Source: a virus
Lineage: Duplodnaviria > Heunggongvirae > Uroviricota > Caudoviricetes
Strand: one strand, 5' to 3'
Virus record (IMG/VR): IMGVR_UViG_2974588491_000001
Span: 314,380 to 378,379 of that record
Length of the DNA stretch: 64,000 bases
In this document: in pieces, positions 2,328-42,214 of the stretch
Layout: the number at the start of each line of letters is the position of its first letter
How positions within the stretch are numbered: position 1 is the stretch's first letter
Program-made: the position numbers and the translations under genes
Notes under the pieces: model-generated
The model's database searches: none
Told to the model about the DNA's origin: nothing
What the model saw: only the letters and a program-made list of their open reading frames with translations

Positions 2328-2813
2328 ATGAAATTGAATCCAAACACCGTTATTAAAAAAGGTTTTGTAGTTGACATTTTTTCGTGGGAAAACGATGCTG
2401 ACGATTATAAGCATACGATCACTACAAGTCTAACTAAAGCCCAGGCTGATTTTCTGATCAACATTGCTCGTGCATTCATTTCTCGCAATGGTTCACGGAT
2501 CAACCGTAATGCAAGTGGTTTTGGTAATAATGAAATCACTCCTGAAGTTGTTGCGTTTTTGGAAGAACAAGTTGAATCACTTGGTGATGAAAAAGATTCT
2601 ATTATGGAACGCTTCGACCTTGAAGGTTATGAAGAATTCGGTGATTATGAATGGTTGGATTTCCTTCACGATTACGTACTTGGTTCACCAGTACAGTACG
2701 ATGATGATTTTTGTCGTGTAGTTGAAACAATTGAACTGAAAGAACTGACAGAAGATTTTGTTGTTCCTGATTTCAATCCACCGTTCAAACGCATTAGTTC
2801 AGAAACTTTGTAA
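2328..2813 (+). CDS. acidic hypothetical protein
   Basis: 161-aa ORF followed by an intrinsic terminator. Confidence 0.6.
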   Translation: MKLNPNTVIKKGFVVDIFSWENDADDYKHTITTSLTKAQADFLINIARAFISRNGSRINRNASGFGNNEITPEVVAFLEEQVESLGDEKDSIMERFDLEGYEEFGDYEWLDFLHDYVLGSPVQYDDDFCRVVETIELKELTEDFVVPDFNPPFKRISSETL

Positions 2814-2822
2814 TTTCTATAG

Positions 2823-2848
2823 TGCTGCATTATGCAGTACTTTTAATT
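2823..2848 (+). terminator. rho-independent terminator
   Basis: hairpin gtgctgca-tta-tgcagtac followed by a T-run. Confidence 0.5.
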
Positions 2849-2853
2849 AAGAG

Positions 2854-3132
2854 ATGGAACACATCATGTATACACCATTGTCTGAAGAACAGATCCAGAA
2901 AGTTAAGAAGTATAATGTAGATTCTGATTATGAAGCATATAAACGTGCTCAATCGATGATTGGTTGTAAAGTAATTAAAAGTTCCAAACGCCCTTTTAAA
3001 AGTACTTTAATTGTTAACACATGTAAAGGTGTTATTCGTAATCCATATACAAATCTTTGGGGAATAAAGTTCGAAGAAGATGATAGTATTGTGGATGTTA
3101 AACAAGTGAAAATTTACACTGAGACTGAATAA
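2854..3132 (+). CDS. hypothetical protein
   Basis: ORF with GAGATGG RBS. Confidence 0.55.
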   Translation: MEHIMYTPLSEEQIQKVKKYNVDSDYEAYKRAQSMIGCKVIKSSKRPFKSTLIVNTCKGVIRNPYTNLWGIKFEEDDSIVDVKQVKIYTETE

Positions 3133-3578
3133 TGAAAAAACTTCTGTTAGTACTTGCAATTTTTACCCTGATTGGTTGTGATCCTTATCCTGCACAATCT
3201 GCACAACCAGAATCATCTCAACCAAGTGAAAGCACTGCTGCAAATACTGAAGCGGCTCAGGTTGAAACTGAGGTTGATGTAGAAGAAGACACTGATGACA
3301 ATGTTATTCAGATAGCACCTCAAACTAAAGAGCAAAAGAAAGAAGCGAAACGTGTTGATTATAAAGCACAAGAAAACATTCGTGTATCTGACAAAGAAGT
3401 TATTGTGTCCAAAGGTCGCAATGATAACGTACAAACCGTAAAACGTGTTGAAGATAAAGACGCTGTTTGTTGGGTCGTTATGAACACACATGAATGGTCT
3501 GGTTCTATTAGTTGTATCCCACGTGCACAACTTGCACCATCACAATCAACTGAACCTGCACCAGTAGCACAACAATAA
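3132..3578 (+). CDS. lipoprotein (signal peptide + LIGC lipobox)
   Basis: MKKLLLVLAIFTLIGC N-terminus; TAATG coupling. Confidence 0.65.
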   Translation: MKKLLLVLAIFTLIGCDPYPAQSAQPESSQPSESTAANTEAAQVETEVDVEEDTDDNVIQIAPQTKEQKKEAKRVDYKAQENIRVSDKEVIVSKGRNDNVQTVKRVEDKDAVCWVVMNTHEWSGSISCIPRAQLAPSQSTEPAPVAQQ

Positions 3579-3625
3579 TCCAAAAGTACTCCTAAATAAT
3601 TAGCATATACAAATAGGAGTACTTT

Positions 3626-3757
3626 ATGATTCTTTTAAGTAAGATTTGGTCTATTCTAAAATCATTTTGGGCGGCTCTATGTGAAGAACCAGCCAACAAT
3701 GTTTTAGGACAGGATCTTCCACCAGATGAACCTTCAGACGAAGACCAATCACATTAA
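3626..3757 (+). CDS. small acidic protein (43 aa)
   Basis: AGGAG RBS 7 nt upstream; followed by a terminator. Confidence 0.4.
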   Translation: MILLSKIWSILKSFWAALCEEPANNVLGQDLPPDEPSDEDQSH

Positions 3758-29958: not shown

Positions 29959-29988
29959 ATCAAAAGGGAGCCAATTGCTCCCTTTCTA

Positions 29989-30648
29989 TTATAGTAATTG
30001 TCTAACTTCGAACTCATAAATTTTGCCGTTAAAGAATGGTGTAGCAGCAGTTCCACTAAAAGCATTCTTACCTACAGTGTAGTTTTGTAGGGTATTGATA
30101 TTAAAAACTTGTGAACTTGATTGAAAAAGAACATCGTTGATGTAAACAAATGAACCTGTACTCAAAAGTTGAATTCTAATTTCCATTGGAGTATTGGCAT
30201 CATTTGTGAATGTTGATGTACTGTAGTTGTCACCTGTATTATTAATACTCATATATGTTTTAAATGGGGCTACTGCGTTTGATGTGTACCCAAATAAAAA
30301 ATAATTTCCGTTGGTTTGTATCGGTCTAGTATCCATTAGAAGTGTAAGATATTGTCCACCTCTATATACTAACCCTGATATTTTATAATAAATTTCCATA
30401 TTAGTTCCAATGGCTAATTTATTATCCTTGAAGTTAAAGTATGAAGAAGCACTCCCGTTAAAATTCATATATGTTCCATATTGGTTTAGACCAACTGTAA
30501 CATCGGCTCCACGGTTTATAGTTATATTATTATCACTTTTGTCTTTAATGTCAGAAATAGTATTAAACTCATGCATACTAAGAAGTACTTTATAGTTCGG
30601 TGGTATGATTACGTTTGCGTATTCAAATAATCTTGGGAATGGTAACAT
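29989..30648 (-). CDS. MLPF-family protein (MLPFPRLFEYAN...), jelly-roll/lectin-like body
   Basis: AAGGA RBS; conserved N-terminal dodecapeptide. Confidence 0.75.
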   Translation of the reverse strand: MLPFPRLFEYANVIIPPNYKVLLSMHEFNTISDIKDKSDNNITINRGADVTVGLNQYGTYMNFNGSASSYFNFKDNKLAIGTNMEIYYKISGLVYRGGQYLTLLMDTRPIQTNGNYFLFGYTSNAVAPFKTYMSINNTGDNYSTSTFTNDANTPMEIRIQLLSTGSFVYINDVLFQSSSQVFNINTLQNYTVGKNAFSGTAATPFFNGKIYEFEVRQLL

Positions 30649-30662
30649 GTGAATAGTTTTCC

Positions 30663-31310
30663 TTATGTTGGTCTACGAATTTCAAAACGGTAAATTTTAC
30701 CATATAAGTACGGTGCTGATGGTGCACCATTGTTAACCCACGCATTCTTACCAATTTTATATTGTTGGTTAACCATACTTATTGCTGCGGTAGTGCTAAA
30801 AAATAATGAGTCATTAACAAATAATTGTGTACCAGTACTCCTTATTTTAAATAGCATTTCAATTGGCTCAGCAGATGTGTCAGGGAATGTATTAGTACTT
30901 TGTAATTCACCAGCACTTTGATAATACATCCAAAGAGTATAAGGTGCTGGGGCGTTAGATGAATATCCAGCAACAAAATATTGCCCATTAGTACCTGCTG
31001 GTCTACAATCTATGATTTGATTTGAATATATTCCACTTCTATATGTGAAGTTGCTTATTTTAATATAAATGTCAAGTTCTCCTAAATCCAACAAACTAGA
31101 GTTAAACTCTACCCATTGTGCTTGACCAGTGAAGTTCATATAAGTACCGTATGCATCAACACCAACAGGCAAATAACCAAAAGCAGATACTGGAATTTTA
31201 TTAGGACTTCTATCAACTATGTCAGACGTACTAATAAAATCATATAAAGCAAAAACTGGAACAGAACTAAGATCATTTCCATATTGAAGCATTCTTGTAA
31301 ATGGAAGCAT
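30663..31310 (-). CDS. MLPF-family protein (MLPFTRMLQYGN...), jelly-roll/lectin-like body
   Basis: paralogous to 29989..30648 over the whole length. Confidence 0.75.
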   Translation of the reverse strand: MLPFTRMLQYGNDLSSVPVFALYDFISTSDIVDRSPNKIPVSAFGYLPVGVDAYGTYMNFTGQAQWVEFNSSLLDLGELDIYIKISNFTYRSGIYSNQIIDCRPAGTNGQYFVAGYSSNAPAPYTLWMYYQSAGELQSTNTFPDTSAEPIEMLFKIRSTGTQLFVNDSLFFSTTAAISMVNQQYKIGKNAWVNNGAPSAPYLYGKIYRFEIRRPT

Positions 31311-31353
31311 ATTATAATAACCTCATATTTTTAAAATTATTAATTATTTAGGC

Positions 31354-31382
31354 TTGACACGATGTTAAATCTTTGATATAAT
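31354..31382 (+). promoter_or_regulatory. sigma70-type promoter (TTGACA-17-TATAAT)
   Basis: consensus hexamers. Confidence 0.6.
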
Positions 31383-31409
31383 GTCAGTATTAAGTGCGAG
31401 AGGTAGAAA

Positions 31410-32192
31410 ATGATTAGTCGTCGCGAAGTACTGAAACTGCGTATCGCTGAGAATTTTGATGCGATGATGGATACGCTTGAGTGCATCCTGAATCCGTTGA
31501 ACCCAATCAAGGCTATGACCGTGACTGGAGCGAGTGGTATTGGTAAATCTTATAACCTGATTAAACGGTTAGAAGATGCTCATGATCATGGTTATTGTAA
31601 CTTCCACTATCTTAACGGTAAATGTACTGGACTTGGTTTGTATCAGGCATTATATAATGCTCGTCACTTAGGTTCAGTACTGCTGATGGATGACGTTGAC
31701 GTATTTGATACAGAAGATAAGTTGAACCTTCTGAAAGCATCTCTTGAATCTGATGATAATCGAATCATCACTTACATGAGTTCTTCACGTCACTTAGCTG
31801 ATAACGGAATTCCTACTCAGTTCGAGTTCTGTGGTAAGGTTATCTTTATCACGAACAAAGACCTAGTGAAAATTTCCGAAGCTAACTCAGCATTGTCTCC
31901 ACATGTTGAGGCATTGATGACTCGTGGTGCATTCATTGACCTTGAGATCCATGATAACGAAAGTGTTATGGTTCACATTGAGAACATCATGCGTAGTACT
32001 AACATTGTTAAAGGTCTTGGTGTTAGCAGCGATGGTGCAGAGAAGATACTGAACTTCATGTTGAAGAACAGTGCTAATCTCCGTAAGCCATCATTGCGTA
32101 TGCCAGTTCAATTGGCAGGGCTGTACTTGCAGTTCCCTGATAAATGGGAGCAACATGCAATGAAAGTATGTGTTAAATCTGTAAAGGTGTAG
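31410..32192 (+). CDS. P-loop NTPase
   Basis: Walker A TGASGIGKS, Walker B LLMDDVD. Confidence 0.65.
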   Translation: MISRREVLKLRIAENFDAMMDTLECILNPLNPIKAMTVTGASGIGKSYNLIKRLEDAHDHGYCNFHYLNGKCTGLGLYQALYNARHLGSVLLMDDVDVFDTEDKLNLLKASLESDDNRIITYMSSSRHLADNGIPTQFEFCGKVIFITNKDLVKISEANSALSPHVEALMTRGAFIDLEIHDNESVMVHIENIMRSTNIVKGLGVSSDGAEKILNFMLKNSANLRKPSLRMPVQLAGLYLQFPDKWEQHAMKVCVKSVKV

Positions 32193-32199
32193 TGTAACG

Positions 32200-32523
32200 A
32201 TGGAAATCATAGCAGTACTATCAATTATAGTTTTTATTATCATGTTCGTCGGGTACTGGACATATGCTGATTACTATACTAATTTAAAAATAGATATACG
32301 CCGAATGTATTGGGTGACTCATGTAATTATGTACGGCATTGCTGCTGAATGTATATTACTTTCAATGGGTGAACCTGAACCACTTAAAGCTGCGATAAAA
32401 GCGTGTTCCGCAGTTATAGGTTATGGTACTATTATAATTGTTGCGTCCAGTTTTGGTGCTGCACTTATTTTGTTTTTTGGTGAATCTCGTAAGTACTTTG
32501 GTCGCAAAAGAAATAAACTTTAG
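32200..32523 (+). CDS. small membrane protein, C-terminal YFGRKRNKL family
   Basis: two TM helices; conserved C-terminal motif. Confidence 0.55.
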   Translation: MEIIAVLSIIVFIIMFVGYWTYADYYTNLKIDIRRMYWVTHVIMYGIAAECILLSMGEPEPLKAAIKACSAVIGYGTIIIVASSFGAALILFFGESRKYFGRKRNKL

Positions 32524-32531
32524 GTGGTGTA

Positions 32532-32884
32532 ATGTTTCATGATTTTATGTACATCAATGGTGTATTGTGGGCTGTAGTTGGTATTATCATGATAATCGGA
32601 AATTTAACTTATGCCGATTATTATACAAAGTTGAATGAAAAATTCGTATCAAACTTTTGGGGTACTTATGCTATTTGTATGGGTGCAGCAATAGTTAACT
32701 TCGTTTTACTTTTGTTATAACGTTGGCGGTTGGTAAAACTGATGGACCAGAACCATTGAATTATGGATTAGGTTGGCTTGCAGTACTGTCCATTATAGTG
32801 TATAGTATCGGTGTTATTTGGGCTATCTGTATCGGATTTTGTAATTTAAAACAATATTTCGGTCGTAAACGTAATAAAATTTAA
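32532..32884 (+). pseudogene. frameshifted paralog of 32200..32523 (or two tiny genes)
   Basis: first ORF ends at TAA 32718-32720 and homology (DGPEPLN...QYFGRKRNKI) resumes in the -1 frame. Confidence 0.4.
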
Positions 32885-32897
32885 GGTATCAATTAAA

Positions 32898-33668
32898 ATG
32901 ATTAAACTTTGTATTGAAGATATTACACTGAATCAGTTAGAACCTAAACTGCTTCCTTTTGTTCAATGGAAATCTCTGAAAGTTTCCGATCTCGAAGGTG
33001 TCAGTGACGAAATCATTTCGAAGTACATCTTCCAAATGGCACGTCCAGTTATCAAATCTATGATCAAAAATAAGAATATAGATTTTAGTCATCTTACTGA
33101 CGATCAATGGGTTGACCTGGTACATGAAGCATACAACGATGACTATTCATTGTTTGACTACTTCCAGCTTCCGTACAGTGCATTGATGAAATTACTGGAA
33201 TCGGATCGTAATGTTAATCGCTATGCTAGTGCAATGGCAAAAACACAAAAGAATATGCCAGTACAAGAAGCATTACGTCATGCTAGTAATAGTTTCTTAA
33301 ACCATATTCTTCTGACGAATAGCAATCCTGCTCTTATGGATTATATGTTCTCTGAAGAAGGTATTGCACAACTGAAAGAGAAACGCCATTCACAGTATCT
33401 TCAGTATTTGACTTCAGAAGAAGCAAAAAAGATCGGTGCACGTAATATTAAGAACCGTCGCATTAGTCCTGAGCTTCTTCGTCGTGCTGGTGCTTGCCAT
33501 AATGGTGTTTCGTACTGTTCTAAAATGCTTAAAGAACTGAATCTGGAACAGATTACATGGGATGAAGCAATTCATACAATCCGTAATAATCCTAAACTTC
33601 AGAAACGTTCTTCACTTCTGGACTATATGGAATGGATCTATCAACGTAGCTCACACCTTCCAGAATAA
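32898..33668 (+). CDS. hypothetical protein
   Basis: 256-aa ORF. Confidence 0.6.
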   Translation: MIKLCIEDITLNQLEPKLLPFVQWKSLKVSDLEGVSDEIISKYIFQMARPVIKSMIKNKNIDFSHLTDDQWVDLVHEAYNDDYSLFDYFQLPYSALMKLLESDRNVNRYASAMAKTQKNMPVQEALRHASNSFLNHILLTNSNPALMDYMFSEEGIAQLKEKRHSQYLQYLTSEEAKKIGARNIKNRRISPELLRRAGACHNGVSYCSKMLKELNLEQITWDEAIHTIRNNPKLQKRSSLLDYMEWIYQRSSHLPE

Positions 33669-33714
33669 ATTATAAATTAAAACTCCCTACGGGGAGTTTT
33701 TTATTGAGGCTCTT

Positions 33715-34065
33715 ATGGTTCTACCTAACGTATTATATAATATTGCAGTACTTCTATTTGTACTTAATCTTTCAACATTAGTAGTACTCTTTGTTGGTTG
33801 GTTAACTCACGCTAATTACTACTATAAACTTTACGAAACTGTTGATGACGTTGCAATTTTTGTACATAGTTTATTCACTGCAATCTTTGGCTTTATTGGA
33901 ATTATTGGTTATCTAGTTGATGATAGCAAACCTCGTCTATTTGATGCAATCATTTCATTAAATGGGTTGTATGTAGCTGCTATACTATTGGTTATAGTAC
34001 TAGGCTATCTTCAAGGTTATATAATGAAGGTGCATAATTACTTCGGTAATAAAAGGGGAAGGTAA
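33715..34065 (+). CDS. small membrane protein, C-terminal YFGNKRGR family
   Basis: TM helices plus motif. Confidence 0.55.
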   Translation: MVLPNVLYNIAVLLFVLNLSTLVVLFVGWLTHANYYYKLYETVDDVAIFVHSLFTAIFGFIGIIGYLVDDSKPRLFDAIISLNGLYVAAILLVIVLGYLQGYIMKVHNYFGNKRGR

Positions 34066-34403
34066 TGGAAGCGTTACTAAGTATATCTGAATATGTTGTG
34101 TATCCATCATTAATATACATGGCACTGTATGTGTTCATCTTTGTTATGTGGTTGTTCGCAACGGACTTTTACGATGTTGTAGAAGATGTAATCGGTGATG
34201 GTAAAGCATTCTTCACTACGATGTTTGTAATAAGTATACTGAACTATATTATTGGTAAGTTCATATGGTCATGGGCTAACCCAATAAACTACTTGTTTAA
34301 CGGCATTCTCTGCATTATCCTATTGCTCATTATCGGTATTCTGTTTCTAACATTTTGTGAATCATTCAACCAGTACTGCCGAGAAAAACGAGGAAAAGAT
34401 TAA
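34065..34403 (+). CDS. small membrane protein (same family, ends CREKRGKD)
   Basis: TAATG coupling. Confidence 0.5.
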   Translation: MEALLSISEYVVYPSLIYMALYVFIFVMWLFATDFYDVVEDVIGDGKAFFTTMFVISILNYIIGKFIWSWANPINYLFNGILCIILLLIIGILFLTFCESFNQYCREKRGKD

Positions 34404-34753
34404 TGTTATATATTTTTATTAACGGTTACACAATAGTATTTTTAACATTTATTATTGTTACAGTACTGGATTGGGTTTTGGGTATTGATAAACTTAACCC
34501 ATATTTGAATGAAAAGCTTGAAGGTGTAAGTAAGAAAAACGCAGAAGTATTCTTTCCTACAATTGCTTTAACTTTATTGGGTATATTTTCTGCACTCATG
34601 TATTTGTGTACTGGATTTATATTCTTCCACGTTATATACTTCTTTGTAGTCTTTTGTGGCTTAGTGATTTTGGGAATAATAATTGCAGTTTGGGCGATCT
34701 TTAAAGTACTGTCCAGTATTCGGAACTTTATTATTTCCAAGAAAAAACAGTAA
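34403..34753 (+). CDS. small membrane protein
   Basis: TAATG coupling; several TM helices. Confidence 0.5.
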   Translation: MLYIFINGYTIVFLTFIIVTVLDWVLGIDKLNPYLNEKLEGVSKKNAEVFFPTIALTLLGIFSALMYLCTGFIFFHVIYFFVVFCGLVILGIIIAVWAIFKVLSSIRNFIISKKKQ

Positions 34754-34759
34754 TTTGGC

Positions 34760-34788
34760 TTGACTTAGGCTTTCGAACTCCGTATAAT
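34760..34788 (+). promoter_or_regulatory. sigma70-type promoter (TTGACT-17-TATAAT)
   Basis: consensus hexamers. Confidence 0.6.
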
Positions 34789-34819
34789 AGCTCCATCAAA
34801 TGATGACGAGGATTTAGAA

Positions 34820-35116
34820 ATGAACAAAGAAGATATGATTGTTGAAGCTGCAAAACGTACTCTTGTTGAACTTAAAAAACAAGTTAAGTCTACACCTCCG
34901 ATGGTTGTACCATTTGCTGTAGTCGGTCTGATTGTAGGCCATTGGTGGGCTACTGTAGTTGTGATCATTCTTATGCTTGTATGGGAAGGTTATGAGCACT
35001 ACAACGATGTAGTTGCAGAAGAAGTTGCAGGTATCAAATCTGCTTCTAAAGAAGCAGCAGACTCTGCCAACAATGTACAGTCTGAAGAAGTCAGTACTGA
35101 AAACAAAGAACAATAA
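34820..35116 (+). CDS. membrane protein
   Basis: 98-aa ORF with central TM hairpin; terminator follows. Confidence 0.55.
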   Translation: MNKEDMIVEAAKRTLVELKKQVKSTPPMVVPFAVVGLIVGHWWATVVVIILMLVWEGYEHYNDVVAEEVAGIKSASKEAADSANNVQSEEVSTENKEQ

Positions 35117-35124
35117 TAATTATA

Positions 35125-35150
35125 CCCGCCAGCATTGTTGGCGGTTTTTT
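35125..35150 (+). terminator. rho-independent terminator
   Basis: ccgcca-gcattgt-tggcgg followed by a T-run. Confidence 0.6.
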
Positions 35151-35167
35151 AATTGCGAGGAAAACAA

Positions 35168-35791
35168 ATGAAACGTACTAAAAATATTAATAAAGACCGT
35201 TTCCGTAAAGTTCATACATTCTGGAAATATAGTGCATTATTCCTGGCTATCTCAGGTAGTACTTTATTTCTGACAGGTTGCGACGATACTGAAAACGTAT
35301 CAGTTTATCAAACGATTCAGGACTGTGAACGTTCTGCTGCGAATGATAAAGCTAAAGAACAATGTGCTTTGGATTACCAAAATGCATTAGCACAAAATAA
35401 AAGTACTGCACCTAAGTACAGTTCACAACGTGATTGTGAAGATGAATTCGGTGCGAATCAGTGTACTACCACGAATAGTACTCATAGTTCTATGATGTGG
35501 TTCCCATTAATGAGCGGTTATAGTTCTTCTCATGCGAACTATCCGAGCCAGCCATTATATTCAAGTACACGTTATAGTTCACCAATGCACGGAAAATTTG
35601 TAGATGCAAAAGGTAATTCATTTGGTTCCTTTAAACCATCTGGTACTTCTTCTGTATCTCGATCAGCACTGTCAAGCAAACCAGCGGTAACAACTACAAC
35701 AACTCGTGGTGGATTTGGTAGTACTGTTTCAACTCATGCTGCACGTGCATCATCATCACATTCTTCCGGTGGTCACAGTTTCGGTGGATAA
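35168..35791 (+). CDS. lipoprotein (LTGC lipobox), Ser/Thr-rich C-terminus
   Basis: GAGGAAAA RBS then ATG in frame with ORF 35153..35791. Confidence 0.6.
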   Translation: MKRTKNINKDRFRKVHTFWKYSALFLAISGSTLFLTGCDDTENVSVYQTIQDCERSAANDKAKEQCALDYQNALAQNKSTAPKYSSQRDCEDEFGANQCTTTNSTHSSMMWFPLMSGYSSSHANYPSQPLYSSTRYSSPMHGKFVDAKGNSFGSFKPSGTSSVSRSALSSKPAVTTTTTRGGFGSTVSTHAARASSSHSSGGHSFGG

Positions 35792-35794
35792 AAG

Positions 35795-35818
35795 AAAAGC
35801 CCCAAAAGGGGCTTTTTT
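35795..35818. terminator. bidirectional terminator between convergent genes
   Basis: aaaagcccc-aaaa-ggggctttt. Confidence 0.65.
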
Positions 35819-36470
35819 AATTTGTGAGATTTAATGGTGGTGTCGGAACTGTAATAGTACTGCCACCATTATATAATGCTTTATTTGTAATCCGTATTTG
35901 ATCATAGTACGCAAGTGAATTTGTTTCATATCCACCAATGCGTAACGGAGTATTATTATCTCCCCAAATATCAGATGTTAAAGTAATTTTAAGTATACCA
36001 TTGATGTACAAATAAACATTACCTGAATGTTGAAGGATACAGAAATGTGTCCATGTGTTTAATGGTATGTTAGCACTTGACGAAACTGAACCACCTTTTG
36101 CTCTACCTTGTAGGTATAGACTTCCACTGTATATTTTCAAACCACTAGTGGTTCCTGTTCCTGAACTCATGTACCAGTTGTTTGATGTATTGTTTGTGCA
36201 ATACGCATACCATTCAAGTGTGAAATCCTGACCAGTACCAATAGTTGTATCAGCACGATCCACAGCACTGATTGTATAGTACCCGTAACGAAAATCATAG
36301 CTGTTCCCAATAATAGCGGGTGTTGTTGGTACAGGAACAGAGCCAACAGTATTAATAACCCTTGTTGGTTTAGCAATATCAATTTTGCCGTTGTTTGCAT
36401 GTAATAGGAATTTTGTAGCGTATTCAACTATTACATTTGCATATTTTATGATTCTTGCGAATGGTAACAT
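35817..36470 (-). CDS. MLPF-family protein (MLPFARIIKYAN...), ConA/LamG-like
   Basis: WTHFCILQHSGNVYLYINGILK-type laminin-G motif. Confidence 0.75.
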   Translation of the reverse strand: MLPFARIIKYANVIVEYATKFLLHANNGKIDIAKPTRVINTVGSVPVPTTPAIIGNSYDFRYGYYTISAVDRADTTIGTGQDFTLEWYAYCTNNTSNNWYMSSGTGTTSGLKIYSGSLYLQGRAKGGSVSSSANIPLNTWTHFCILQHSGNVYLYINGILKITLTSDIWGDNNTPLRIGGYETNSLAYYDQIRITNKALYNGGSTITVPTPPLNLTN

Positions 36471-36479
36471 AATAGTTCC

Positions 36480-37151
36480 TTATTTTATCTCTGTTATTTT
36501 TAATTTAGCAAGTGAACCACCAAAATAATATGGTTGCCCACCAACTTCAGCACTAACATATGATCCACCAATAGATAGCTTATATCCAATTCCGTATGGA
36601 TATAGAGGAAATGTTTGTGTATTATTGTAATAAGAACTTTTCACCGTAATACCAGAATTCTTTATATATGTGAATGTCATAGTTTCCCACGACATATGGT
36701 TAGTTCCATTCATTAAAACTCTATTATATGTTTCCCCGCTATCTAAAAAGTACTGGAAATATGTTGATGGAAATTGGTTTAATGCACATGTGATTCCTGG
36801 AATTCTTTGTGAGCTATAATTACCAGTTTCCCATAAACCTTCCATCACTGAAGTTCTGTTAGTTTTAAACTGTATTACTACCTCAAAACTTCTATTAGTA
36901 AGATCTAGTTTTGAACCACTTATAATTGGTGGTGTTACATAATATCCTGCACCACTAAATTTAAAAACGTTTTGTCCTAATTGTGGATCGTATTGGACAG
37001 AGCCAGCAGTTCCAATTGTACTAAATTGTGCTCCTGCATTATCTCTGATAAAATTGTCACCAATTGTTTGTGTACTGAAATCAATATCTAACAGTACTGT
37101 ATTTGGAGGTAAAATATTTGCATATTCTACCAATCTTGGAAATGGTAACAT
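36480..37151 (-). CDS. MLPF-family protein (MLPFPRLVEYAN...), jelly-roll-like
   Basis: conserved N-terminus. Confidence 0.75.
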   Translation of the reverse strand: MLPFPRLVEYANILPPNTVLLDIDFSTQTIGDNFIRDNAGAQFSTIGTAGSVQYDPQLGQNVFKFSGAGYYVTPPIISGSKLDLTNRSFEVVIQFKTNRTSVMEGLWETGNYSSQRIPGITCALNQFPSTYFQYFLDSGETYNRVLMNGTNHMSWETMTFTYIKNSGITVKSSYYNNTQTFPLYPYGIGYKLSIGGSYVSAEVGGQPYYFGGSLAKLKITEIK

Positions 37152-37159
37152 AATATCCT

Positions 37160-38017
37160 CTATTGAAATCTATATTGTGAATTTATTGGTGAAGTTGAAT
37201 ATCCATACATACTATATACTTTAACGCCATCTAATGATGTATATAATGCTCCGCGAGATATACCAACTGAAGTGTTAAAACCGACTTGCGACCAAGTATT
37301 AGTACTAATACTATATTTGTACAATCTTTCAGCATTAACACAGTAGATGGCATCATTATATTCATTATAAGTCATTCTACCTTGCATTGATGCCATAGAA
37401 CTCCATGTTCCAGTAGAAATTAAAAATTTCTGACCACTAGAACCTTGACAGTACAAATAATTTCCATCAGTTGTCATATCACCAGCCAACGAATTAGTAA
37501 TACTAGAACTTGTTAGTGTAGTCCATGCATTAGATGCAATGTCATATGAAAATAATTGTGAACCGCCGTCACTACCCCATAGATATAGCTTTCCATTATT
37601 TGTACTTACAAACCTACAATGGTGTCTAGCTGATGGCTTATTAGTACTCGTTGTATTTTCAGACCAAGTATTAGATGATATATCGTATATAAAAAATCTG
37701 TTTTGCATGGAACCAGTATATCCACCAAACATATATATTTTTCCATTATATCCAGCTAAACCTGAACCATGCATTGCTAATGTTCCATTAGCTAATGGTT
37801 CCCATGTTTCAGTACGAGTGTCAAATCTCCAAAATTCATTATTATAATCACTGCCAACTACTGCACCACCATACATATAACCATAGTTATCTAAACTAGT
37901 ATATCCAAAAGAAAATCGTGCACTAGGGGAAATAGTAGGTGAAATTTGGATTCTTGTTCCGGTATTATTTTCTTTTCTGATATTTCCATATTCTATCAAT
38001 CTTGGGAATGGTAACAT
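37160..38017 (-). CDS. MLPF-family protein (MLPFPRLIEYGN...), Kelch-type beta-propeller
   Basis: repeated YMYGG / IYMFGG / LYLWGS blades. Confidence 0.75.
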   Translation of the reverse strand: MLPFPRLIEYGNIRKENNTGTRIQISPTISPSARFSFGYTSLDNYGYMYGGAVVGSDYNNEFWRFDTRTETWEPLANGTLAMHGSGLAGYNGKIYMFGGYTGSMQNRFFIYDISSNTWSENTTSTNKPSARHHCRFVSTNNGKLYLWGSDGGSQLFSYDIASNAWTTLTSSSITNSLAGDMTTDGNYLYCQGSSGQKFLISTGTWSSMASMQGRMTYNEYNDAIYCVNAERLYKYSISTNTWSQVGFNTSVGISRGALYTSLDGVKVYSMYGYSTSPINSQYRFQ

Positions 38018-38721
38018 TATACTTCTCCGCTTAATTCATGTGTATATATTTTTGCAATTGTCGCATTATCTAATAGATAATCATACATCCTGTGTCCAGC
38101 AATTCCCCCAGCTAACGGTGTAGCGGTTGGGTTACTTGGATAGTACCCTAAACCAACACTACGTGCTGTTGTTGTACCAGTACCGTAACCAGTAAATGTA
38201 GGACTTACTGACTGAGTTTTTATCAATACTCCATCAGCATAAAAACGTAAAGTATTAGTACTCCTATCATAAGAATATACAGCATGTACCCATGTATTAA
38301 CAGGCATTGAGTACTGACCAAAATAAGAATTAGTAGTACTCGCAGTATTCACACAATAAAAATTCCGTACTAACGATGGAGAACCACCAGTATTGTAACT
38401 GAACCCAATATTACCAGATGCATTTATGTATGCCTTTGCAGCAGTACTAGTAGTGTATACCCAATTCATTGCAGTCCATGATGAATTTGCATAAACTATT
38501 TCATCATAGTATAATCTCTGTGCTCCATTACATACAAGAGCTTGTTTACCACCAACTGTACCTATTGTACCAGATGTATAAGTGAAGTTCGCTTGTGTAA
38601 ATTTAGGATTTGTGGTATCACCATGATTAGCAATATCAGCACGTAAGGGTAAGTACACCAATGGTGCTGGAAGAATATTTGCAGCATTTCCATATTCTAA
38701 CATTCTTGAAAAAGGTAACAT
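38017..38721 (-). CDS. MLPF-family protein (MLPFSRMLEYGN...), ConA/LamG-like
   Basis: NTWVHAVYSYDRSTNTLRFYADGVLIK motif. Confidence 0.75.
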   Translation of the reverse strand: MLPFSRMLEYGNAANILPAPLVYLPLRADIANHGDTTNPKFTQANFTYTSGTIGTVGGKQALVCNGAQRLYYDEIVYANSSWTAMNWVYTTSTAAKAYINASGNIGFSYNTGGSPSLVRNFYCVNTASTTNSYFGQYSMPVNTWVHAVYSYDRSTNTLRFYADGVLIKTQSVSPTFTGYGTGTTTARSVGLGYYPSNPTATPLAGGIAGHRMYDYLLDNATIAKIYTHELSGEV

Positions 38722-38730
38722 AATATCTCC

Positions 38731-39573
38731 CTATTTGATTTTGTAAAATTTAGTTCCGTTTACTGTCCAACCTGTATCATATGAACATGCTATAGCAACT
38801 TCATTTCCACCAGCAGGAGCAGTATTGTTAATTTTTGTCCATACATTAGTGTTTATACTGTACTGCCATAAACCCGCCGTTGGCCCAACTGCATAAATGT
38901 AATTACCCATTCTACTTATTTTATTACGTGTTCCAATTCCTGCACATGATGCAAGGGTTTGCCATGTATTACTTTCTATATGATAACGTGCAAATGAAGT
39001 ACTGTACATCATATACAAATAACCAGAACTATAAATTAAACCTACCTCATCACCATTACTGCTACCAAAAGGTAAAGTTGCTAAACCTGTGGTACTCCAT
39101 GTATTTTGTAACACACTATATCTCCACATAGCTGAACCTTTAACTGCATAAACATAATCACTATTATCATAGTTCATCGCAATACTTAAATCATACGTGC
39201 TTTGTGGTAGTACTGCCATCTGACTCCAAGTATTCAAGATTGTATCATATCTGTCAAATCTGTTCGTACTACTATATCCACCAGCACAATAGATATATCT
39301 GCTATCAGCACATATTCCAATGTTTCTAACATTTATTGGTCTTGTTGTAAGTAAGGTGACTGCACCTGAAACTGGATTCAGTTTATATATTTGGCTTGTC
39401 TGGTTAATGAAATATATATTGTCTCTGTATGTACAAGATCTTGACCCATATGTTCCAAAGGTTGAAACGGTGGTATATTCTTGTACTGTTCCTGATAATT
39501 TATTTGGGTTTGAATCATCATAATTAAACACTACTGTATTTCCGTACTCATTGATTATAGAAAAAGGTAACAT
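38731..39573 (-). CDS. MLPF-family protein (MLPFSIINEYGN...), beta-propeller-like
   Basis: repeated IYxxGG blades. Confidence 0.75.
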   Translation of the reverse strand: MLPFSIINEYGNTVVFNYDDSNPNKLSGTVQEYTTVSTFGTYGSRSCTYRDNIYFINQTSQIYKLNPVSGAVTLLTTRPINVRNIGICADSRYIYCAGGYSSTNRFDRYDTILNTWSQMAVLPQSTYDLSIAMNYDNSDYVYAVKGSAMWRYSVLQNTWSTTGLATLPFGSSNGDEVGLIYSSGYLYMMYSTSFARYHIESNTWQTLASCAGIGTRNKISRMGNYIYAVGPTAGLWQYSINTNVWTKINNTAPAGGNEVAIACSYDTGWTVNGTKFYKIK

Positions 39574-39619
39574 TTCAATCCCTCAAATTTATTAATATTA
39601 TGTATTTACTTACAAAAAC

Positions 39620-39647
39620 AGAAAAAGCCCAACCTAAGTTGAGCTTA
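39620..39647 (-). terminator. intrinsic terminator inside the MLPF array (- strand)
   Basis: agctcaac-tta-ggttgggct followed by a T-run on the - strand. Confidence 0.55.
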
Positions 39648-39650
39648 TAA

Positions 39651-40322
39651 TTAACTTATAATCTTTAATTTTAAATACTTCATGTACCCATAAAAATTAG
39701 TTGCCGTAGGAGTTTTGAAATAACCACCTACACCAAAAGACTGTCCATTAGAACATTCAAATGCAGTATACGTGGACTGATTGGCAATAACACCATTTAC
39801 ATATCTGGTAATAGTTACATTTGAATCAACTTTTCTGTACACAACTCTTTGCCAATCACTTACTAACTGACCATCAACAAAATGTCGAACAAATGTACTA
39901 GCGTTCTGTAGAAAGTACTGATCATTTCCTGCGTACTGTAATATCTGATGAGCAAATCCAGGTATGTTATTCGTTACATCTGGATAATATCCTGTACCAT
40001 AAAGTAATTGAATTGCGTTAACCGCAGAGTTTCTTTTGTACATAACATCGAACTCATAATTCTTCCCGTTCAATGAGATAGATGCATCTAGCGGGGTACT
40101 GAAAACTGCACCATTGAAATACATAACATTTGCATTCAACATATTATCCAGTACGATTTTACCCTCCAAAGAATTTAACTTAGTGAAAAGTCTATTCTTA
40201 TAACTATAATCAATTATATTAGTATCACCCAATGCTTGTCGAGAAAAATCTAAATTTATTTCATACTCATTGGAAACTACTTTTTTATTACCGTACTGTA
40301 ATAATCTTGGAAATGGTAACAT
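39651..40322 (-). CDS. MLPF-family protein (MLPFPRLLQYGN...), jelly-roll-like
   Basis: conserved N-terminus. Confidence 0.75.
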   Translation of the reverse strand: MLPFPRLLQYGNKKVVSNEYEINLDFSRQALGDTNIIDYSYKNRLFTKLNSLEGKIVLDNMLNANVMYFNGAVFSTPLDASISLNGKNYEFDVMYKRNSAVNAIQLLYGTGYYPDVTNNIPGFAHQILQYAGNDQYFLQNASTFVRHFVDGQLVSDWQRVVYRKVDSNVTITRYVNGVIANQSTYTAFECSNGQSFGVGGYFKTPTATNFYGYMKYLKLKIIS

Positions 40323-41085
40323 ATAAATTCCCCTCTATATCTTTTAATATCCTGTATTTACCATTGTTATAACTATATAAATATCTACTATCCGCACATA
40401 ACATAGAATTGTTTAATTCAGATGTTCCTAATGATGCAGTACTCCATGTGTCACTTAACATATCATATATGTACAGATTACTATTACCTATACCATATAA
40501 CTTGTAATTGTTATACGCCGTGCCAGTACTATAACTCAACTTCAACGGAGGAAATGTAAGTTCTTCCCAGGTCCACGTACTTATATCTATCCGATACATA
40601 CCATTGTATAAATCAGCAGCCCATATGTAAAAGTAATTAGTCTCACCAATATTAACAAAATATATCATCGCTTGTGATAATTTTCCTGGAGAATTCGTAG
40701 TAACAATAACATCCCATGTGTCAGATTCAATACTATATCTATACAACTTATCACTTACCTGTGTGCCATTACTATCCTTTACACCACCGTACAAGTATAT
40801 GTGAGAATTATAATACGTACTCGTTGTACCATATAAAACTTCAGGCATAGATGATAATTGATGCATGGTATTATCTATAGTACTGTACCTGTACAAATTA
40901 TTAGTTACCTGTGTACCATTCCATCCACCACATATGTATATGTCTGACTGTACTGAACATACCATATGACCATATAATTGTGTGCCACCTAGTGTAATTC
41001 CTTGCGGTTCTACAACTTCCATATCTCCATCAATAATACCAGGTGCTGAATTTCCATAAGCACTTACTATACTAAACGGTAACAT
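40288..41085 (-). CDS. MLPF-family protein (MLPFSIVSAYGN...), beta-propeller-like
   Basis: IYICGG / IYLYGG repeats; 35-nt overlap with the downstream gene. Confidence 0.7.
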   Translation of the reverse strand: MLPFSIVSAYGNSAPGIIDGDMEVVEPQGITLGGTQLYGHMVCSVQSDIYICGGWNGTQVTNNLYRYSTIDNTMHQLSSMPEVLYGTTSTYYNSHIYLYGGVKDSNGTQVSDKLYRYSIESDTWDVIVTTNSPGKLSQAMIYFVNIGETNYFYIWAADLYNGMYRIDISTWTWEELTFPPLKLSYSTGTAYNNYKLYGIGNSNLYIYDMLSDTWSTASLGTSELNNSMLCADSRYLYSYNNGKYRILKDIEGNLYVTISKIITVR

Positions 41086-41151
41086 TTTAAATCTCCTATT
41101 GATTATTTGTTAATGTATTAGGGAATGAACGATCATCTCCATAAATTATTC

Positions 41152-41184
41152 TTACAGCACCACCAATTGCGGAAAAGGTAACAT
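41152..41184 (-). pseudogene. 10-codon remnant of an MLPF-family gene (MLPFPQLVVL*)
   Basis: AAGGAGAT RBS, ATG and 10 codons of the family N-terminus, then TAA. Confidence 0.45.
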
Positions 41185-42214
41185 ACTTTTATCTCCTTCT
41201 TATTTTTTTATACGTCTCTATTATACTATGATAGAAACTAATATAGGTATTTACCCACTTTATCATTCCTAGACACTCCTTAGAACACATGCTATAATCC
41301 CCCTAGAAGCTCGTAGAACGCTCTACAACGCACGTGTTTGATTCCTGTAGTATCGCTATTGCGATATCGAAAGGATTCAAACTAGCTAAAATAGCGTTCA
41401 CGATATTCTATGTATTAATATACAGTACTGTAATAATACACAATATGGATAAGTTATCAGTACTATATGTTTGTACAGGAAAAGATAGGTTCTATCTTAT
41501 AGTACTATAGAAGTACAGTTCAGTACTGTTGACCCCTTCCGCTATATCCGTTCCTGAAGTCGAATGCGAATAGCACAAAAAGTACAGCAACCTTTTTTCA
41601 AAAATGATAACATGAGGTTGGGAAAAATCTGGAGTGATCGTGAAATCAAATACGAATCAAGGAAATTTTGGAGTACCCTTCAGACTTTTTCTGAGATCTC
41701 GAAAGTACACCAAAGTAAAGACGCATCGTAGAAATTACGTTCAATACTATAATACAAATACAAAGTACTGAAAATTTATACAGTACTGTTATTATGCACA
41801 GTGCAATATAAATTTTAAAATCAGATGAAAAAAGTACTTGACGAGGGATGATGGAATTGATACTATAGCTACAAGTTAAGGAGACAGGCAACGGTCAAGC
41901 CTCTCAGCCACGTAGCCTGGAACCTTAACAGTACTGCAATGATGGTTGCCCCCTGATTTGCAGTCCTCTTACCAGAGGTGTTCTCTTCATTGCTTAGGAA
42001 ACATTAAGTACTAAGCGTGTTAAAAATTTGAAGTACTTTATAGTACTATGCAGTGTACATTCTACTAAGTCATCCTGCCAATAACTTTTGAATGTATAGT
42101 GCTAGTACTATATCTTTTTAAGTGAGAATATTAGTACTGTATAAGTACTGATGAATTACCAAAGTACAGATACAATGAGGGTATATGTTGTCTGAATTTT
42201 GGGTGTACTATCCC

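Follow-up and report, generated by a model that had tools for sequence, protein, structure and literature searches.

Why should nine small genes of one phage, whose products belong to different folds, all open with nearly the same twelve residues? The question is raised by an array of minus-strand genes at positions 29,989 to 41,184 of a 64,000-nt stretch of viral DNA (IMG/VR record IMGVR_UViG_2974588491_000001, positions 314,380 to 378,379), the whole of which is referred to here as the window. The window sequence matches that of Pectobacterium phage vB_PcaM_CBB at 100 % identity (KU574722.1; subtracting 314379 from a record position gives the window position), and the array comprises CBB_536–537 and CBB_548–554, sited just upstream of the terminal repeat. 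This phage (CBB hereafter), a member of the genus Mimasvirus, is a Rak2-like jumbo myovirus of 378 kb with T4-like core genes, and not T4-type proper as it was called in a preliminary description made from the window sequence alone. The evidence presented here indicates that the shared N-terminal peptide, termed the tag, very probably drives incorporation into the virion in some form. On balance, the reading favoured is that it docks exchangeable binding heads on a shared acceptor, probably displayed externally.

Conservation of the tag in CBB

Translation of the open reading frames (ORFs) of the window confirms nine minus-strand genes of 215–285 aa, every one opening with MLPF. In the six-frame translation of the window MLPF occurs 10 times, only at the nine gene starts and at a remnant of a tenth copy. 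The DNA pattern ATGYTNCCNTTY has 11 matches, where 0.94 would be expected and no more than 4 were reached in any of 100 shuffles; one of the 11 is a chance MFPF within an antisense ORF. In BLASTP comparisons, run on the whole proteins and again after removal of the first 14 residues, the first 12 residues are 58–83 % identical in every CBB pair. Without the N-terminus, kinship is detectable only within the sets {536,537} (39 %), {549,553,551} (25–27 %), and {550,552,554} (24–27 %), and the body of CBB_548 stands alone, without detectable kin among the CBB bodies. The earlier statement that these genes share only the dodecapeptide is therefore correct between fold classes and incorrect within them, where the bodies are 24–39 % identical.

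In CBB, the conservation is seen in the peptide and not in the surrounding DNA. Upstream of the start codons the CBB array genes are unrelated to each other, except for the ribosome-binding site (RBS), and within the tag the codons vary for conserved residues (TTA/CTT, CCA/CCT/CCG, TTC/TTT, and TAC/TAT). In a 366-kb metagenomic relative (L057), six genes carry the identical tag MIPFARISKYGN, encoded with differences in the Ser, Ala, Arg, Lys, Tyr, Gly, and Pro codons. Identical tags written in different synonymous codons show that selection acts on the peptide.

Based on Pfam and PHROG matches, the bodies that follow the tag are six ConA/LamG-like domains and three Kelch propellers, rather than the five and four counted initially. 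Against PF13385 (Laminin_G_3), CBB_548 and CBB_551 score 47.8 and 47.9 bits (cut-off 27.6), phrog_6011 matches CBB_536, 537, 549, 551, and 553, and the Kelch motifs in CBB_550, 552, and 554 are above the Pfam cut-offs. CBB_536 is placed in the fold by PHROG and BFVD, its BFVD model matching that of CBB_549 (E=2.7e-9), with only the first ~65 columns aligned when it is compared with the 549 family by hhalign; for CBB_537 the only grounds are the phrog_6011 match and an identity of 39 % with CBB_536.

Structure models support the lectin-like assignment. The AlphaFold2 model of CBB_549 is a beta-sandwich with a ConA-like jelly roll (mean per-residue confidence, pLDDT, 85.7), and the Foldseek check of the LamG fold proposed earlier bears it out, the best PDB neighbours being clostridial neurotoxin Hc-N (lectin-like), neurexin LNS, and CBM40. 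Its viral neighbours in BFVD include CBB_553 and CBB_536, together with LamG modules from proteins that carry tail-fibre, minor-tail, or baseplate-wedge annotations. CBB_550 is modelled as an all-beta propeller of ~24 strands (mean pLDDT 88.9). In both models the tag falls below a pLDDT of 50 (residues 1–10 of CBB_549 average ~48; residues 1–13 of CBB_550 are below 50) and makes no confident contact to the domain; it is predicted to be a free N-terminal arm on LamG and Kelch folds alike. A PDB sequence search found no solved structure that contains array proteins.

The tag across Rak2-like jumbo phages

Degenerate DNA scans of IMG/VR found multi-match loci almost only in contigs of 350–371 kb, plus one 109-kb contig; among them are Serratia phage BF, GAP32, Yersinia phage fHe-Yen9-04, and a 121Q-type genome. 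Together with Salmonella phage Munch, which has the largest array (17 consecutive genes, all MIPF..YGN), this search of other phage genomes, as proposed in the preliminary description, yielded 88 distinct tags from 13 Rak2-like jumbo genomes; in all, some 90 proteins from no fewer than 13 such genomes begin with the tag. Their consensus is M-[L/I]-P-F-x-[R>I,Q,K]-[I/M/L]-x-x-Y-G-N, then often a Pro-rich linker, in a collection for which the pattern demanded M1, P3, F4, Y10, G/A/S11, and N12. A second tag class, MLPFPIISNT..., which lacks Y-G-N, is present in Serratia phage BF (L004, 2189–11724), L005, and Yersinia phage fHe-Yen9-04 (L045), where it heads most of the RCC1-like and Gly-rich genes beside the R-type tag. 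The tags of CBB_552 (MLPFSIINEYGN) and CBB_554 (MLPFSIVSAYGN) look intermediate between the two classes, which may correspond to two acceptor sites.

The cargo attached to the tag in this clade ranges from 170 to 680 aa. It includes RCC1-like propellers (the commonest class), Kelch propellers, RCC1+Kelch fusions, at least four LamG subfamilies, Gly_rich_2, and several domains without assignment. Judged from sequence, the tag is a module in its own right that has been joined to five or more fold types across the clade. In GenBank, the RCC1-like array members are labelled as DNA condensation protein, regulator of chromosome condensation, X-linked retinitis pigmentosa GTPase regulator (RPGR), HERC1 ubiquitin ligase, or GTPase regulator. 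The 'DNA condensation protein' relatives in 121Q, phAPEC6, and Munch have only the RCC1-like propeller fold in common with RCC1 and are not basic; these labels are name transfers from the fold, and the present results correct a widespread annotation on dozens of virion genes.

Tag variants follow the genome and not the cargo. At the variable tag positions (2 and 5–9), identity is 0.70 for the same genome and the same cargo class, and 0.58 for the same genome and different cargo classes; between genomes it is 0.33 for the same cargo class and 0.29 for different classes. For example, MLPFPQL heads LamG-536, LamG-548, LamG-549, 'WY'-type, and RCC1 proteins of a single genome. This is the pattern expected if the paralogues fit one co-evolving partner.

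Relatives of the cargo outside the clade do not carry the tag, which shows that it is an add-on, matched within each phage. LamG homologues in rV5-like and other phages are untagged, that of the rV5-like Cronobacter phage CR3 beginning with MNEMLMLGQAKAKAG, and the bacterial Kelch relatives of CBB_550 begin with signal peptides. Homologues that are ordinary single-copy tail fibres without the peptide had been named in advance as a refutation; untagged single-copy LamG homologues do exist in rV5-like phages, and as a sign of an add-on they bear only partly on the question.

A word-indexed profile search with the N-terminal 40 residues of 87 sequences gave no match. An exhaustive hidden Markov model search of 1.84 billion representatives with the nine window N-termini returned four true tag proteins (RCC1-like, LamG-like, or fragments), and thus no sign of the tag outside the clade, within the limited sensitivity available for a 12-residue motif; its remaining matches were rejected as low-complexity repeats. 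In RaK2 and K64-1 there was no match to LamG_549 or RCC1-like cargo, and no MLPF tag was seen, the RaK2 genome not having been scanned directly. Single-match loci found with a relaxed pattern in small contigs (a 185-aa tail-collar-like protein, a 352-aa capsid-like protein, and others) were set aside, as their number is about that of a hand-estimated chance expectation. The 185-aa tail-collar-like protein, beginning with MVPFSVIEYYGN, recurs in unrelated contigs of 10–51 kb (L018, L023, L026, L035, L037, and L051) and was treated as a chance match.

The content of the array differs sharply between the close relatives CBB and GAP32, and also between coliphages of the same species. GAP32_530 and GAP32_531 are orthologues of CBB_548 and CBB_549. 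The true N-terminus of GAP32_531, MLPFVKMIKYGN..., lies at record positions 126–1 (L058/L059, the record ends); the linear GAP32 record was opened inside the gene, which is therefore annotated without its 5′ end. With that end recovered, the GAP32 array is contiguous across the record ends, in the order 002-001-531-530. In the 121Q-type genome (L008), one minus-strand member is broken into a tagged ORF of 68 aa (3422–3628) and an untagged RCC1-like ORF of 341 aa (2449–3474), which from the sequence is a frameshift pseudogene or a sequencing error.

Virion association and the role of the tag

Tagged proteins are components of the virion. According to the published description of CBB, seven of the nine (536, 537, 548, 549, 551, 552, and 553) were found in purified virions by mass spectrometry (MS); the same work noted three 'Kelch-like' proteins, listed as paralogues only 536/537 and 549/553, and left the shared N-terminus unmentioned. 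Likewise, GAP32_001, 530, and 531 were detected in GAP32 virions, and eight array members, at low coverage, in those of phAPEC6. CBB bears unexplained 119-nm hairs on its tail; in all three of CBB, phAPEC6, and 121Q, hairs or fibres of unassigned origin extend from the tail sheath and/or the capsid.

The first of two mechanisms suggested in the preliminary description, a docking peptide, is favoured by the modularity of the tag, by variants that track the genome, by selection at the peptide level, by the free arm in the AlphaFold2 models, and by the presence of the proteins in virions; the acceptor and the location are putative. Each array gene would encode a modular minor virion protein in three parts: an address peptide of ~12 residues with the core M-[L/I]-P-F-x-[R/K/I/Q]-[I/L/M]-x-x, usually followed by Y-G-N; a short linker, often Pro-rich; and an interchangeable beta-rich domain, in CBB a ConA/LamG jelly roll or a Kelch/NanM-like propeller and in relatives also an RCC1-like propeller or a glycine-rich domain. 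The flexible arm would insert its N-terminal end into an acceptor site on a conserved virion component present in many copies, and as this site would be common to the whole array any paralogue could fill it. With 9–17 paralogues bearing one address, either the acceptor would be multi-copy or each virion would carry a random subset. The particle would then present several kinds of ligand-binding head at once, in a set that can be changed quickly, most likely on its outer surface, the likely purpose being reversible adhesion to glycans of the host or of environmental surfaces, and the array would evolve as its genes are duplicated, exchange their cargo, and decay. The acceptor could be the hairs or fibres of tail and capsid, the gp34-like fibre CBB_225/226, or the baseplate. 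CBB_534, a neighbouring virion protein of 90 aa, was considered and rejected, as its distribution leaves out the 121Q group and thus does not co-occur with the tag.

We infer docking to a shared acceptor, an external location, and a function in glycan binding or adhesion. External display in particular is suggested by adhesin-type cargo folds with secreted or tail-associated relatives, by isoelectric points (pI 4.7–9.2) that do not mark the array proteins as basic, by the fast turnover of the array between close relatives, which is typical of host-interaction genes, and by the fact that docking through conserved N-terminal peptides is established in other phages. A tentative extension, possible but doubtful, is that a universal N-terminal plug loads a stochastic mix of up to ~17 lectin and propeller heads on the hairs, so that virions differ in their combination of adhesins as a form of bet-hedging for adhesion and host range, with R-type and I-type tags going to two sites.

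Several observations weigh against docking as described. The shared acceptor is putative. The capsids of phAPEC6 and 121Q contain an inner body, and RCC1-like proteins were tentatively suggested as its constituents by the authors of the phAPEC6 study. CBB_550 and CBB_554 are absent from the virion MS detections, and MS neither places the proteins inside or outside nor tells whether they keep their N-terminus. With their small size and probably monomeric state, the cargo domains differ from the trimeric tailspikes of known docking-peptide systems. Genome-specific tag variants are also explicable by common descent or by recombination within a genome. Furthermore, since Y10, G11, and N12 were required by the search pattern, their invariance is partly a matter of ascertainment: among members found by position, the tag of GAP32_002 ends in RYGD and that of GAP32_530 in KFGV, and seven of the nine genes at the BF array locus have MLPFPIISNT... 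in place of a YGN-type tag. From such members, the safe invariant core of the tag is MLPFx[R/I]Φ, on present sequences.

An alternative to docking, considered rather unlikely, is that the tag is a capsid-targeting sequence that binds the scaffolding core, the proteins then lying inside the head, with or without gp21-type cleavage. The T4 internal proteins IPI-III and Alt, which are basic and internal, carry a leader of ~10 residues that ends in (L/I)xE and is removed by gp21. As in T4, a short N-terminal leader (~10–12 aa) is common to otherwise unrelated small proteins of one phage, encoded at a variable locus, and could direct them into the particle. CBB has a T4-like prohead core scaffold/protease (CBB_255), five of its nine tags read (L/M/I)-x-E at positions 7–9, the inner body of 121Q and phAPEC6 would offer a destination, and genome-specific tag variants would also fit co-evolution with a scaffold protein. 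However, Glu9 is found in only 11 of the 88 tags (Lys in 29, Gln in 10, Thr in 9), with none in the 121Q-type array and one of 17 in Munch, and no conserved (L/I)-x-E site of the gp21 type emerges. Y-G-N, which would lie past the cut, shows higher conservation than the proposed cleavage site itself, partly by ascertainment, and no sequence resemblance to the T4 leader MKTYQEFIAE is seen. The range of pI is not that of basic DNA-associated proteins, and the lectin-like and propeller cargo has secreted relatives outside phages and relatives in tail or baseplate proteins within them. The second mechanism suggested earlier, a T4-type leader cut at (L/I)xE, is thereby weakened, and an uncleaved targeting signal keeps a small probability.

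It is improbable that the tag serves some other step (a dedicated chaperone, the neighbouring NTPase/membrane module, stability, or export) with virion association brought about by the cargo. The tag stands strictly at the extreme N-terminus, and a module of P-loop NTPase, membrane-protein, and DUF1190 genes is syntenic and convergent with the array in every lineage examined, but conserved gene order at a genome end says little about function and the tag has no signal-peptide character. In addition, the proteins are in purified virions of three phages, and each unrelated fold would need its own route onto the particle.

Still less probable is head-to-tail polymerization through the N-terminal arm, in donor-strand style, with the proteins themselves forming the 119-nm hairs. 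The arm is free, hairy phages carry large arrays, and the hairs lack an assigned gene product. However, LamG, Kelch, RCC1, and Gly-rich folds cannot have one acceptor groove in common, no hairs are reported for GAP32, whose virion has four such proteins, and MS coverage in phAPEC6 is low. Finally, a mere relic of recent duplication or gene conversion, or a translation signal at the nucleotide level, is scarcely credible: the near-identical ~65-nt terminator-promoter-RBS cassette and tag codons before genes of the 121Q-type and Munch arrays could drive unequal crossing-over, but the upstream DNA is not conserved in CBB and L057, identical tags differ at synonymous sites, the bodies have diverged to 24–39 % identity or are of different folds, and the tag is kept across genera, which disposes of the recent segmental duplication that the preliminary description had named as its refutation.

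Anchoring of variable modules by a short N-terminal element has precedents in other viruses. The adenovirus fibre tail motif FNPVYPY docks on the penton base, and T4 Hoc and other Ig-like or lectin-like proteins decorate capsids. In these, as proposed here, a short N-terminal peptide or small domain anchors variable exposed modules to a multi-copy capsid site; they differ in having one gene per virus and no array of unrelated folds, in different viruses and with no homology.

The closest parallels are among phages. In the Klebsiella phages KP32 and KP34, in the Menlow and phiK64-1 groups, and in K1E/K1-5/SP6, short N-terminal peptides of 7–11 aa dock secondary receptor-binding proteins (Latka et al. 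2019, PMC6872550), and a 2026 paper reports experimental validation. There too, an extreme N-terminal peptide of ~7–11 residues is conserved within a phage group and differs between groups, as is the case for the tag, and exchangeable host-recognition proteins use a shared virion site, with the cargo swapped by recombination. Those systems have large trimeric tailspike or depolymerase cargo, one to four partners per phage, and a T4gp10-like branching-domain acceptor, whereas the Rak2-like arrays have 9–17 small lectin-like or propeller cargo domains, with no beta-helix depolymerase found among them, a putative acceptor, and a peptide unrelated in sequence. In the related jumbo phages RaK2 and phiK64-1, the branched tail-fibre cluster gp526-534 (PMC10253068) is likewise a multi-gene host-interaction array, its virion proteins combining a conserved N-terminal module for attachment with a C-terminal part that varies, although its modules are ~100-aa D1 head domains and gp10-like domains and it carries depolymerase beta-helices.

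In principle, therefore, the earlier claim that a short shared N-terminal address is new was overstated, as T4 leaders and the peptides of secondary receptor-binding proteins are described. Publications cover the arrays, their Kelch and RCC1 labels, and the MS detections, but the literature searched contained no mention of the shared tag. What appears to be undescribed, no paper on it having been found, is the use of one address on unrelated folds, its reuse across a clade, and its genome-specific tuning. If correct, docking would explain a diversifiable surface toolkit in a clade of giant phages (CBB, GAP32, BF, fHe-Yen9, 121Q/phAPEC6/PBECO4, and Munch). The array is also a concrete lead to the composition and function of the hair-like appendages, making the identity and ligands of the hairs directly testable, and, should the 12-residue tag suffice for virion loading, it would be a simple handle for the display of foreign domains and the re-targeting of jumbo phages.

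Array layout, transcription units, and the neighbouring module

Features of the tag array of phage CBB and its surroundings, in window coordinates
Feature	Position	Strand	Description	Virion MS
Terminator-like hairpin	29962..29986	-	closes the 537-536 unit	
CBB_536	29989..30648	-	MLPFPRLFEYAN tag and ConA/LamG-like body, 219 aa; phrog_6011 E=1.8e-48	detected
CBB_537	30663..31310	-	MLPFTRMLQYGN tag and body with 39 % identity to CBB_536, 215 aa	detected
Upstream region of CBB_537	31311..31409	-	late-promoter-like CTAAATA core 40 nt before ATG	
Neighbouring conserved module CBB_538–547	31410..35791	+	P-loop NTPase-like gene, small membrane-protein paralogues, DUF1190 lipoprotein (annotation and Pfam)	
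Terminator-like hairpin	35795..35816	-	closes the 552-548 unit	
CBB_548	35817..36470	-	MLPFARIIKYAN tag and Laminin_G_3 body, 217 aa; Pfam E=2.2e-12	detected
CBB_549	36480..37151	-	MLPFPRLVEYAN tag and ConA-like jelly roll, 223 aa	detected
CBB_550	37160..38017	-	MLPFPRLIEYGN tag and Kelch beta-propeller, 285 aa; Pfam Kelch E=3.7e-32	not detected
CBB_551	38017..38721	-	MLPFSRMLEYGN tag and Laminin_G_3 body, 234 aa; Pfam and PHROG	detected
CBB_552	38731..39573	-	MLPFSIINEYGN tag and Kelch propeller, 280 aa; Pfam and PHROG	detected
Intergenic region	39574..39650	-	internal terminator 39625–39646, then GTAAATA late-promoter-like core 35 nt before the 552 ATG	
CBB_553	39651..40322	-	MLPFPRLLQYGN tag and ConA/LamG-like body, 223 aa	detected
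CBB_554	40288..41085	-	MLPFSIVSAYGN tag and Kelch propeller, 265 aa; Pfam and PHROG	not detected
Pseudogene remnant	41096..41184	-	frame analysis and match to C-termini of Gly-rich array members	
Array head	41185..41260	-	strong RBS; late-promoter-like GGGTAAATAC 69 nt before the remnant ATG	

The tenth copy is a real remnant, larger than the 41152–41184 first assigned to it. One frame reads MLPFPQLVVL*, and another frame of the same DNA ends in IGGAVRIIYGDDRSFPNTLTNNQ*, which matches the C-termini of a 245-aa Gly-rich protein of the 121Q type and of Munch_544. With MLPFPQ fused out of frame to the last ~22 codons of a Gly-rich array member, the remnant is a pseudogene formed by internal deletion.

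Internal terminators were predicted from the outset, and three minus-strand hairpins are located within the array region. Together with three late-promoter-like TAAATA cores, they divide the array into the units remnant-554-553, 552-548, and 537-536. The late promoter motif of CBB is ATAAATA (PMC5259590). With such a core at the head of each unit, the array genes are predicted to be transcribed late, in three units. The GGGTAAATA motif likewise stands upstream of array genes in L054 and Munch. Translational coupling within units is suggested by gene overlaps: the start of CBB_553 and 35 nt of its tag-coding DNA lie inside the 3′ end of CBB_554 (40288–40322), and CBB_550 and CBB_551 overlap by one base at 38017.

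A near-identical cassette of ~65 nt precedes almost every array gene of the 121Q-type genome and several in Munch (L013). It consists of a terminator hairpin (GCCAGTAC...GTACTGGC and a T-run), TATTAAATATAGTATAAT, and an RBS; genes so preceded would be separate transcription units. As direct repeats, the cassettes may promote unequal crossing-over.

The plus-strand module that converges on the array from 31410–35791 was first taken for an insertion. CBB_538–547 is syntenic with GAP32_521–529, and the same synteny is found in BF, L005, L045, L057, L021, Munch, and GAP32; being kept in all the related genomes examined, the module is ancestral, and the gain specific to CBB is the 536/537 pair. Adjacency of the NTPase/membrane-protein/DUF1190 module and the array was observed in every Rak2-like lineage examined (including L004, L005, L045, L057, L021, L013, and L059), and could be a functional link or merely a conserved architecture of the genome end. 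In Pfam searches of the neighbouring plus-strand genes, DUF1190 was the only match. Between 32200 and 34753, CBB_539–545 are small membrane-protein paralogues on the plus strand with the C-terminal motif YFG(R/N)KR(N/G)K in common, of which CBB_540 (32532–32720) and CBB_541 (32723–32884, TTG start) look like a single paralogue broken by a stop codon.

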